From an uncultured Ignavibacteria bacterium (GTDB lineage: Bacteria > Zixibacteria > MSB-5A5 > CAIYYT01): 64,000 bases of DNA. Location: positions 15,206 to 79,205 of the forward strand of contig CAZKIH010000011.1 in the NCBI GenBank assembly GCA_964552775.1, written 5' to 3'. Under the pieces are notes generated by a model. That model was not told the DNA's origin. It worked only from the letters and a program-made list of their open reading frames with translations, and did no database searches. The position numbers were made by a program, and so were the translations under genes. Below, in pieces: positions 2,333 through 4,865 of this stretch; position 1 is the first letter of the stretch; each line of letters starts with the position of its first letter.

Positions 2333-3406
2333 CTATACTCTTTGAATTTCAAAATTCTCACCCTTCATACGTACTTCGACTTTTGATCCTTCGGGGAAAC
2401 GTCCGTCAATAATCCCAATGGAGAGGGGATTGAGAATTTCTTTCTCCATCACCCGCTGCAACGGTCGTGCGCCCATCTCAAAATTATATCCCCTGTCGGC
2501 CAAGGCTTTCATAGCCTCGGGCGTGCAGGTGATGGTCATCTTCTGGTCCTTGAGAATCTTGTTGATGACTTTGAGCTGAATGCTCACGATCGCTCCGATG
2601 CCCTTCTCGGTCAATGGACGGAAAATGATCCACTCCAGACGATTCAGAAACTCCGGGCGAAACTTCGCTTTGAGAATATTCATCATCTCCTCGCGCTCAA
2701 CCGGCTTCTCTTCGCGATAACAATCAAGAATGTAGTGCGAGCCAAAGTTCGAGGTGAGAATGACGATGGTGTTCGTGAAATCAATCGTATTGCCTTGGCC
2801 ATCAGTCAAGCGGCCATCGTCCAAGAGCTGCAGCATGATATTGAAGACGTCGGCATCTGCCTTCTCAACTTCGTCAAACAAGACAACCGAGTACGGATTG
2901 CGCTTCACCTTTTCGGTCAACATGCCGCCGGCCTCGTACCCGACGTAGCCGGGAGGCGCGCCAATCAACTTCGCAACCGAGTGCTTCTCCATGAACTCGG
3001 ACATGTCGAAACGGATCATGTTCTTTTCGTCGTTAAACAAGAACTCCGCCAGCGTCTTCGCTAACTCGGTCTTGCCGGTACCGGTGGAACCCAGGAATAG
3101 GAATGAGCCAATCGGCCGGTTGTGCCGCTTGATCCCCGACCTTGAACGACGCACGGCCTCGCAAATAGTCTTGATCGCTTCCTCTTGATCAATGACGCGC
3201 TGCCCGAGATGAGCCTCGAGATTCAGCAGCTTGGCCTTTTCGTCCTCCATCATCCGATTTACCGGAATCTTAGTCCATCGCGAGATGACAAAGGCGACAT
3301 CCTCTGTGCCAAGCGTCTGCTTCTCTGCGGTCACAAATTTTTCAAGCTTGTCGATCTTTTCGAGGTTCTCTCGGAATCTACTGATCTGGCTTTTTTCTGT
3401 ACTCAT
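2333..3406 (-). CDS. clpV: ClpV/ClpB-family AAA+ ATPase, C-terminal half (second nucleotide-binding domain, NBD2); separate ORF
   Basis: Walker A GSTGTGKT, sensor/arginine motifs, and the ClpB C-terminal D2-small domain (MGARPLQRV). Own RBS AAGGAAAGAA 7 nt upstream of ATG at 3404-3406. Confidence 0.8.
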   Translation of the reverse strand: MSTEKSQISRFRENLEKIDKLEKFVTAEKQTLGTEDVAFVISRWTKIPVNRMMEDEKAKLLNLEAHLGQRVIDQEEAIKTICEAVRRSRSGIKRHNRPIGSFLFLGSTGTGKTELAKTLAEFLFNDEKNMIRFDMSEFMEKHSVAKLIGAPPGYVGYEAGGMLTEKVKRNPYSVVLFDEVEKADADVFNIMLQLLDDGRLTDGQGNTIDFTNTIVILTSNFGSHYILDCYREEKPVEREEMMNILKAKFRPEFLNRLEWIIFRPLTEKGIGAIVSIQLKVINKILKDQKMTITCTPEAMKALADRGYNFEMGARPLQRVMEKEILNPLSIGIIDGRFPEGSKVEVRMKGENFEIQRV

Positions 3407-3443
3407 TTCTTTCCTTAAGATTCATCACTCATCAGGGACGAGA

Positions 3444-4865
3444 CTATACCCTTCCTGTCCAGAGGGAGAACATTTCATCGAATTTTTCATTGAATGCTTC
3501 AATCTTACGCCGAACGTCCTCCTCAAGTCCATCATCACTGTCGGCTGCCGCTTTCACACCCAGAAGCTTCTTGATCTCTTCGGCTTCCTTGCGCAGGTCG
3601 CCGATGCCGTTCTTGGCGCGAGTGCAGTTGAGTCGGAATGAGGCCGACGCCTCGTCAAGCAAATCAATGGCCTTGTCCGGCAGGAAACGGTCGCCGATAT
3701 AGCGCTGCGAGAGCTTGATCGCCTCGTCAACCACCGTGTCCGGAATCTCCAGATTATGATGCTTTCCGTACGTATCACGCACTCCCGCAAGAATCTCCTG
3801 TGCTTCCTGGAAATTCGGCTCTTCCACCATGACCCGTTGGAAGCGCCGGTCGAGTGCCTTGTCTTTTTCTATATACTTGCGATACTCCTCAAGAGTTGTG
3901 GCTCCAATGACCTTGAATGTGCCACGCGCCAGCGCCGGCTTAATTAGGTTGGCGGCATCCATCCCGCCGGAAGGATTGCCGGCACCGACAAGGGTATGAA
4001 TTTCATCCATGAAGAGCACCAGGTTGCCTTTGCCCTTGGCAAGACGGGATATCAAGTTGTTGAATCTCTCCTCGAATTCACCTTTATACTTGGCGCCTGC
4101 CACCAATTGGCCGAGATCAAGGTGAAGAATGATCGTATCCCACAATTCTGGCGTTGTTTGCTTGTTGATAATCTGCAGCGCCAAACCCTCGACAAGAGCG
4201 GACTTGCCGACACCGGGAGGTCCCACTAATATTGGATTGTTCTTGCGGCGGCGAATCAGAACACGCGAGATGTTGAAAATATCTTCCTGACGTCCAAAGA
4301 AGCGATCATAGTCTCCCTTGCGTGCCTTCTCGCACATATCTACGCAATACTTGATTCCCTCGGCGCCGGCGACCGCGTCGCCGCCATCTTCACTGGTAGT
4401 AGTCTGTCCGCCGGCAATCGACTGCACGACCTTCATCTCGGCATTGGCGTCGATGATCTTGCCTTCGTCAAAATCCATGCGTCGACGGATCTGTTCGCTC
4501 AGCGGCGAGTCAGGACCGACAAAGACCATAAGAATGTGCTCGGGACGGGTCTCCGTTTCGGAAAAACGTTGCGCCTTGTTCGACGCCGCTACCAGAAGTG
4601 ACTGCAGCGCAGGGGAAGCGACCGGTCGGACTTCATCTGAGGCCGACTTGCCCATTTTGGAAAGCTCATCCGCCAGCAAAGCCTCAAAGTAATCAGGCTT
4701 CTTTCCCAACTGCTTGAGAAGCGCGGCCAATTCACCACCCTCGTCACGCAACAACACCAAGAACAGATGCTGAGGCTTAATCTCAGCGTGAAAATAGCTT
4801 TTTGCCAGCTCCTGCGCACGGCGAATAGCGTTCTGCAGGGTCGCTGAAAACGATCCTAGATCCAT
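3444..4865 (-). CDS. clpV: ClpV/ClpB-family AAA+ ATPase, N-terminal half (N-domain plus first nucleotide-binding domain, NBD1); separate ORF
   Basis: Clp N-domain at the start, Walker A GPPGVGKS, Walker B LFMDEIH. Ends with TAG at 3444-3446 in the linker/M-domain region. The downstream ORF is in a different frame. Confidence 0.8.

Follow-up and report, generated by a model that had tools for sequence, protein, structure and literature searches.

A 64,000-nucleotide (nt) stretch from an uncultured Ignavibacteria bacterium (GTDB Zixibacteria, MSB-5A5, CAIYYT01; GenBank assembly GCA_964552775.1, contig CAZKIH010000011.1, forward-strand positions 15,206 to 79,205; hereafter the window) encodes the ClpV (TssH) unfoldase of a T6SSiii-type type VI secretion system (T6SS) as two adjacent genes, clpV-N and clpV-C. 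ClpV is a two-ring Hsp100/Clp AAA+ unfoldase that disassembles the contracted TssB/TssC sheath. To our knowledge, every description of an Hsp100 unfoldase (ClpA, ClpB, ClpC, ClpV and Hsp104) has the two stacked ATPase rings built from one chain. The split pair very probably arose by an evolutionarily fixed fission of a T6SSiii-type ClpV and acts as a heteromeric, probably 6+6, sheath-recycling unfoldase. The gene structure, its conservation, the selection on both halves, the integrity of their motifs, the position of the break, the phylogenetic grouping and the genomic context were all observed directly in these loci.

Both genes lie on the minus strand. The upstream open reading frame (ORF A, clpV-N, the N-half of tssH; 3444–4865) starts with ATG, ends with a TAG stop at 3446–3444 and encodes 473 amino acids (aa) with the C-terminal end FSLWTGRV. 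The downstream frame (ORF B, clpV-C, the C-half of tssH; 2333–3406) starts with an ATG at 3406–3404 and encodes 357 aa. A spacer of 37 nt (3407–3443) separates the two, and their frames differ by 1. The coordinates, lengths, separation and difference in frame given in a preliminary description of the locus were all correct, the strand having been left unstated there. From N to C terminus, clpV-N contains a Clp_N domain, the first nucleotide-binding domain (NBD1), AAA_lid_9 and helices 1 and 2 of the three middle-domain helices, with the Walker A motif GPPGVGKS at aa 215, the pore loop KYKGEFE at 259, the Walker B motif VLFMDE at 283 and the arginine fingers DKALDRRF at 335. ClpV-C opens with an amphipathic helix, the third of the middle domain, followed by NBD2 and the D2-small domain; its Walker A motif GSTGTGKT is at aa 106, the pore loop GYVGY at 153 and the Walker B motif VVLFDEVEKA at 174, and it carries the sensor-1 TSN, the arginine finger PEFLNR at aa 251 and the sensor-2 GAR at aa 312. 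The motif scan thus bears out the earlier claim that the Walker A/B, sensor and arginine-finger regions are intact in both halves.

Consistently, Pfam assigns Clp_N, AAA and AAA_lid_9 to ORF A and AAA_2 and ClpB_D2-small to ORF B, so that the domain order of a class I Hsp100 (Clp_N, NBD1 with its AAA lid, NBD2 with D2-small) is present and spread over two ORFs. Along the NCBIfam ClpB model, ORF A covers positions 2–457 and ORF B covers 521–852, leaving 458–520 unmatched. The pair therefore has every domain and motif of a class I Hsp100 and departs from that class only in lacking a single chain, the two NBDs residing on two ORFs in the window and in all related loci.

In the spacer, ORF B is preceded by a purine-rich, Shine-Dalgarno-like sequence, AAGGAAAGAA (3416–3407, minus strand), whose predicted duplex with a generic anti-Shine-Dalgarno sequence has an energy of −6.1 kcal/mol. 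Its GGA core lies 5 nt from the ATG; the element proposed in the preliminary description is thus present, at a shorter spacing than the 7 nt assigned to it. Promoter and terminator scans found no promoter-like or terminator-like site in these 37 nt. In the frame of ORF B, where a single TGA had been said to block read-through, there are in fact two in tandem (TGA TGA, 3427–3422, minus strand), five codons before the ATG, and the frame of ORF A meets a second stop beyond its TAG (TGA, 3434–3432, minus strand). Because the frame of ORF A closes at 3446–3444 and that of ORF B opens only past 3422, no single-base insertion or deletion can join them, and this arrangement of stops weakens the earlier suggestion that one such change might restore an ORF of ~830 aa.

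We searched each half against 5.8 billion proteins, with homologs grouped into clusters at 90%. The N-half has 21 full-length homolog clusters (471–484 aa, 68–88% identity) and a second tier of ~29 clusters (455–491 aa, 38–45%), and for the C-half, upwards of 40 clusters are exactly 357 aa long (73–95% identity), with a second tier of ~363–372 aa (51–57%). Across dozens of clusters from four data sources, the lengths are tightly bimodal, at 455–491 aa and 356–372 aa, and the source names, where given, are candidate division Zixibacteria, Candidatus Zixiibacteriota and FCB group. The cluster that holds the N-half of the window has 27 members, and all 15 members listed are 473 aa long. The assemblies behind it come from NCBI, ENA, JGI and Logan; one member lies on a 2.8-Mb contig, and a matching 357-aa C-half is found on a contig of the same size. 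When the clustering is relaxed to 50%, the split family shrinks to about three representatives before the scores drop to those of ordinary ClpBs, and it is therefore a small clade.

DNA was recovered for 11 related loci, at 78–79% and 37–45% identity, giving 12 loci with the window. The split is at the homologous position in all 11, and a complete C-half follows in each of the eight that extend far enough. The comparison of orthologous loci that had been proposed as a check thus finds the same split in every related locus recovered, to ~40% identity. A scan of metagenome contigs yielded 8 split loci among 80, the rest being ClpBs. A scan of genome contigs with the N-half alignment, in which the patterns used (AGAKYKGE and LPDxAxD) were universal, returned only ordinary ClpBs and supplied the single-ORF controls: all of the complete ordinary ClpB genes (121/121) are single ORFs of 840–900 aa. 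Two candidates were rejected, namely P0271, the best-scoring full-length relative, which is an ordinary ClpB without T6SS context, and P0267, a Clp gene whose fragmentation is artefactual. Fragmentation of this artefactual kind is exemplified on a short ENA contig (L166, 1–2727), where pieces of 88, 477, 66 and 260 aa are arranged with overlaps and irregular gaps, unlike the conserved split.

Both halves are under purifying selection. In comparisons among the window and two related loci (L001 and L083), the proportion of nonsynonymous differences (pN) is 0.07–0.15 for the N-half and 0.06–0.12 for the C-half, and the corresponding synonymous proportion (pS) is 0.77–0.82 and 0.70–0.78. Synonymous sites are saturated, and dN/dS is 0.03 for the only pair with a computable dS. 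In addition, a motif scan of the window and the 11 related loci found the Walker A and B motifs of both NBDs, the KYKGEFE and GYVGY pore loops, DKALDRRF, TSN and GAR in every complete locus, and the arginine-finger motif of NBD2 (PEF/LLNR) is present in all nine complete C-halves. From the selection and the intact motifs together, it follows that both genes are functional and have long been so after the fission.

The junction between the halves varies among the loci. From the stop of the first gene to the ATG of the second, four loci have a spacer (+37, +38, +40 and +18 nt), two overlap by TAATG (−1 nt), five by ATGA (−4 nt) and one by 8 nt (−8 nt), and the frame offset across the 12 loci is 0, 1 or 2. 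The overlapping arrangements (ATGA or TAATG) are found in the majority of the distant relatives. Such overlap of stop and start codons is the standard layout for translational coupling by termination-reinitiation. What is conserved in every locus is an ATG at the homologous position with a purine-rich stretch before it. The Shine-Dalgarno-like duplex before this ATG has a mean energy of −8.4 kcal/mol, compared with −3.0 ± 2.5 kcal/mol for 174 internal ATGs of the same genes (generic anti-Shine-Dalgarno sequence).

These observations bear on two explanations in which the second gene would not be a gene of its own. One is that the two ORFs are joined into a single fused polypeptide by programmed recoding, whether a frameshift, stop-codon readthrough or ribosomal bypass. 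The ORFs are indeed very close or overlapping, and in one locus (L163) they share a frame, with one TAG and 18 nt between them. However, because the gap (−8 to +40 nt) and the frame offset (0, 1 or 2) differ among relatives, no recoding signal or mechanism is conserved; moreover, between the ORFs of the window frame A meets a further stop and frame B meets two, each locus has the homologous ATG with its Shine-Dalgarno-like element, and the ATGA and TAATG overlaps are classic for termination-reinitiation. To judge from these sequences, the varied junctions argue against recoding and for translational coupling, and we consider a recoded fusion highly improbable. Bypass of the T4 gene 60 type was rejected since the gap length varies and matched take-off and landing codons are not conserved, and a split intein was rejected as well, the halves being no longer than their encoded domains, with no extra intein-like sequence. 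The other explanation is that a single ClpV gene has been broken by a sequencing or assembly error or by a recent inactivating mutation. Fragmented Clp genes do occur in error-prone assemblies, as in L166, and tssC is broken into two ORFs in L001, but all of the loci share the identical break, and so do dozens of protein clusters drawn from independent projects, the 2.8-Mb contig among them. Selection is strong across saturated synonymous divergence with every catalytic motif intact, the tandem TGAs lie past the first stop such that no single insertion or deletion restores one ORF, and the start codon and the Shine-Dalgarno-like sequence of the second gene are conserved; the chance of an error or a pseudogene is therefore vanishingly small. 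The preliminary description had listed an assembly error, a frameshift and a genuine two-polypeptide ClpV and favoured none of them outright. The break shared by independent assemblies and the purifying selection on both halves dispose of the first, the varying junction architecture and frame relation exclude a conserved programmed frameshift, and the two-polypeptide ClpV is supported by the conservation, the selection and the varied junctions alike.

The position of the cut is well defined. The preliminary description had placed it in a middle-domain linker; it is in the middle domain, not in a linker but inside the short domain itself, between helices 2 and 3. Alignments and the helices predicted by AlphaFold place middle-domain helices 1 and 2 on the N-half (~aa 410–470; 3456–3638, minus strand), and the third helix, QISRFRENLEKIDKLEKFV, on the C-half (aa 7–25; 3332–3388, minus strand), where it corresponds to helix 480–498 of the AlphaFold model of the concatenated halves. 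A W-x-x-R motif (WTGRV or WGHRVE) is conserved at the extreme C-terminus of the N-half across the split loci (3447–3461 in the window, minus strand). In 17 aligned split-family sequences, with the contexts LWTGRV and YWGHRVE, W469 is nearly invariant (Trp in >90%) and R472 is invariant. W469 aligns with the conserved middle-domain Trp of ordinary ClpBs, which corresponds to E. coli Trp462 in helix 2, and the N-half terminates 4–18 residues past it. In the tier with overlapping genes, the codons after the W-x-x-R motif also encode the Shine-Dalgarno sequence of the next gene, and this stretch is thus under dual constraint. The C-half opens with a helix of ~25 residues followed by a conserved D[VI]A.V[IV].R.TGIP segment, its residue 31 aligning with residue 520 of Thermus thermophilus ClpB. 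Compared with ClpBs, ~31 middle-domain residues are absent from the split pair in the alignment; these correspond to the end of helix 2 and helix 3 of ClpB, the motif-2 region that contacts DnaK around E. coli Tyr503.

An AlphaFold2 model was obtained for the concatenated halves, an artificial fusion, with a 129-sequence alignment that holds full-length ClpBs and unpaired halves. The predicted local distance difference test score (pLDDT) was 90.7 with the alignment and 36 without it, and structures of ClpC and ClpB match the fold. In the model, helices span 397–440 and 449–470 and are followed by a loop at 471–479 that contains the natural break, and then by the helix at 480–498; of the ten-residue blocks in the middle domain, the one with this loop has the lowest confidence (pLDDT ~72). 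In both helices flanking the cut, a 3–4 (heptad-like) hydrophobic periodicity is kept in all loci despite sequence divergence. Helix 3 of the C-half is predicted to pack on helices 1 and 2 of the N-half.

The pair belongs to a T6SS locus. Directly downstream of clpV-C, after 20 nt, is a gene for a tssB-like small sheath subunit (1857–2312, minus strand, 151 aa) with weak matches to PF05591 and TIGR03358, followed by tssC for the large sheath subunit of the T6SSiii type (433–1839, minus strand, 468 aa; DUF5458, PF17541, E = 2e-50). The other genes of the operon fall outside the window, past its left end. In each of the nine loci with sequence downstream, the window included, the ClpV pair is directly upstream of tssB-tssC, and tssB, tssC, tssD, vgrG, tssE, tssF and tssG are present in all eight related loci that reach far enough. 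A gene of 144–151 aa occupies the tssB position in L001, L002, L163 and L164, with a weak VipA match in L001, L002 and L163. These four loci carry a complete T6SSiii-type operon in Zixibacteria/GN15-type metagenome-assembled genomes, with PF17541 TssC, PF17642 TssD, VgrG, gp25-like TssE, TssF and TssG, and the homologs of the window TssC bear the source names Zixibacteria and GN15. The divergence of TssC is two-tiered as in the ClpV halves, and the locus therefore evolved as a unit. T6SSiii-type systems are thereby documented outside Bacteroidota; a 2026 review describes them as restricted to that phylum (PMC13584744).

In family profiles, the two halves score 411.2 (N) and 473.0 (C) bits against ClpB (TIGR03346), a sum of ~884 below the cut-off of 1232.1, and 367.1 (N) and 330.2 (C) bits against ClpV1 (TIGR03345), a sum of 697 below the cut-off of 884.95. 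We use the name ClpV because of the T6SS gene context and the grouping with Bacteroidota T6SSiii ClpVs, not because of orthology to proteobacterial ClpV1; what the preliminary description called ClpV is thus retained on context and T6SSiii grouping, and an ortholog of proteobacterial ClpV1 is not what the profile scores indicate. In a neighbour-joining tree of 852 well-aligned columns with 11 split sequences (as concatenated halves) and 121 ClpBs, the split sequences are monophyletic, and every one of the 100 bootstraps sets them apart from the ClpBs. With the window TssC as query, tblastn led to T6SSiii loci on Bacteroidota plasmids at ~27% identity, whose ClpV is encoded by one continuous ORF, of 849 aa in Hymenobacter volaticus (WP_245126471.1) and 812 aa in Bacteroides finegoldii (WP_254028299.1). 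The split clade groups with these two ClpVs at 100/100 in the neighbour-joining analysis and shares with them a shortened middle domain, in which a polar loop containing Pro stands where the split genes are cut. Judging from these sequences, the simplest history is that a fused T6SSiii-type ClpV underwent a single fission within the lineage to which the Zixibacteria-type T6SS loci belong.

From these data, we propose how the two-gene ClpV may work. The two genes come first in the T6SS operon, apparently sharing a transcript with tssB and tssC. ClpV-C would be translated from its own start behind the Shine-Dalgarno sequence, and the overlaps in distant relatives would couple translation and favour near-equal amounts of the two proteins. 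The N-half would supply the substrate-recognition N-domain, the first ATPase ring (NBD1) and middle-domain helices 1 and 2, and the C-half would supply helix 3, the second ATPase ring (NBD2) and the C-terminal small domain. Helix 3 may pack in trans on helices 1 and 2, to which ring stacking and six-fold avidity would add, and the halves would form a hexamer of heterodimers (6+6) equivalent to the ordinary ClpV hexamer. Sheath subunits would be threaded along a single continuous channel whose wall carries the conserved Tyr loops of the two rings. No [ILVM]G[FLM] tripeptide, as expected for a ClpP-docking IGF/IGL-type loop, was found in the 30-residue segment between sensor-1 and the NBD2 arginine finger in nine loci. 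Since there is no IGF loop, the unfoldase is expected to act without ClpP, and probably also without DnaK, because the ClpB stretch reported to bind DnaK is deleted. A bolder idea, which we regard as improbable though worth stating, is that the pair is a natural hetero-dodecameric Hsp100 of six NBD1 and six NBD2 subunits whose middle domain is built in trans, and that the fission could let the rings associate reversibly, so that the coupling of the rings or the recruitment of the NBD2 motor to sheath-bound N-halves would become a regulated step of T6SS recycling instead of being fixed within a single chain.

Several points weigh against the proposed two-chain sheath-recycling ClpV. Complex formation, stoichiometry and sheath recycling are what we infer from the sequences and the model. 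The predicted trans-packing of helix 3 is partly inherited from the fused homologs in the alignment, and the model is of an artificial fusion. The summed profile scores miss the equivalog cut-offs of both ClpV1 and ClpB, making ClpV a contextual assignment. The grouping with T6SSiii ClpVs comes from a neighbour-joining tree in which just two of them, and none of the proteobacterial ClpVs, were included; long-branch attraction is possible. Two other functions could also be envisaged for the pair. The halves might work separately, for example with an NBD1-only ring as a sheath-binding adaptor or holdase and an NBD2-only ring that unfolds, or with one half shared with other partners. Single-ring Clp unfoldases such as ClpX exist, and isolated ClpB NBD1-M is reported to be fully active by itself as a cooperative ATPase (PMC4239642). 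We nevertheless give this a slim chance, given that the two genes always lie side by side in one order, in most cases with translational coupling, that the halves diverge in parallel across two tiers as TssC does, and that the helices flanking the cut keep complementary amphipathic patterns and the N-half its W..R motif, as expected for a maintained interface. Alternatively, the pair might be a general ClpB- or ClpC-like stress chaperone merely located beside T6SS genes. The ClpB profile does score above ClpV1 for both halves (411 versus 367 bits and 473 versus 330 bits), and, of the solved structures, those of ClpC and ClpB match best. Against this, the pair is directly upstream of tssB-tssC in all nine loci extending downstream, across deep divergence, lacks the ClpB stretch aligned with the reported DnaK-binding motif 2 as well as a ClpP loop, and groups with the T6SSiii ClpVs apart from 121 ClpBs; we consider a stress chaperone very unlikely.

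Several neighbouring features were noted. The rest of the window carries housekeeping genes (AlaRS, GyrA, GyrB, MnmG and YidC), and the locus is therefore chromosomal. Immediately upstream of clpV-N is a gene for a Ser/Thr protein kinase (5096–6130, minus strand; Pkinase E = 7e-23), which may be a T6SS regulator, its membership of the system being uncertain. Its position is not conserved in L001 or L002, and L163 has an FHA-domain protein upstream (7340–7675). The kinase in the window and the FHA protein in L163, both upstream of clpV-N, recall the TagE/Fha threonine-phosphorylation control of T6SSi. In L001, a 78%-identical relative on an 822-kb contig, tssC is called as two ORFs of 167 and 241 aa (13021–14476) with both clpV halves intact, which reflects either a long-read insertion or deletion or decay of that locus. 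Several TssC homologs (P0482, P0490 and P0527) are labelled 'phosphopantetheinyl transferase (holo-ACP synthase)' by JGI, which looks like a propagated misannotation. Farther away, the plus strand at 7610–9478 encodes an Mrp/ApbC Fe-S carrier ATPase with an extra C-terminal GBBH-like_N (DUF971-type) domain, followed by a gene for an NfuA-like Fe-S scaffold.

We found no description of a two-gene ClpV in the literature (full text on split ClpV/TssH, Zixibacteria T6SS and T6SS surveys, and the 2026 review), and the halves bear generic names in databases ('ATP-dependent Clp protease ATP-binding subunit' and 'AAA family ATPase'). These loci will be missed or mis-scored by T6SS finders built around one TssH of ~850 aa, or by ClpV profile cut-offs. 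The communication between the rings and the middle domain of Hsp100s is still debated, and the split pair provides a naturally occurring case in which to study inter-ring allostery, the assembly of the middle domain in trans and the stoichiometry of the subunits.

Among known unfoldases, the Bacteroidota T6SSiii ClpV/TssH shares with the split pair a T6SS locus with DUF5458-type TssC and TssD, the position adjoining tssB/tssC, the domain order and the shortened middle domain; it differs in being a single ORF, in its identity of 28–38% and in its host, which is Bacteroidota and not Zixibacteria. Proteobacterial ClpV1/TssH (TIGR03345), characterised by an N-domain that binds the N-terminal helix of TssC/VipB, is likewise a two-ring Hsp100 with Clp_N, associated with T6SS next to the sheath genes and presumed to disassemble the sheath without ClpP or DnaK, whereas the split pair scores below its equivalog cut-off (367 + 330 versus 884.95 bits) and is divided into two polypeptides. 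ClpC of Bacillus subtilis and Staphylococcus aureus is the top structural and sequence match of the N-half and also has a short middle domain, but the split pair has neither the ClpP-binding IGF loop nor the UVR motif, consists of two chains and is found in a T6SS context. The ClpB/Hsp104 disaggregases are the best sequence and profile match of the pair, which differs from them in lacking ~31 middle-domain residues and in its T6SS rather than heat-shock context. It is in this family that the laboratory counterpart of the natural split is found, the engineered NBD1-M and NBD2 pair of T. thermophilus ClpB. Made as separate proteins, the two are each reported to be active (PMC4239642), and an earlier study cited there declares in its title that chaperone activity does not require a covalent linkage (Beinker et al. 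2005, J Biol Chem 280:37965). With this in vitro precedent, the natural split is of specialist interest rather than a cause for astonishment. The natural cut is ~30 residues upstream of the engineered one, and the C-half consequently carries a middle-domain helix, which could serve as a tether. The arrangement of separate rings engineered in ClpB has thus been fixed in nature, with the break in one defined middle-domain loop, and selection has maintained it through deep divergence.

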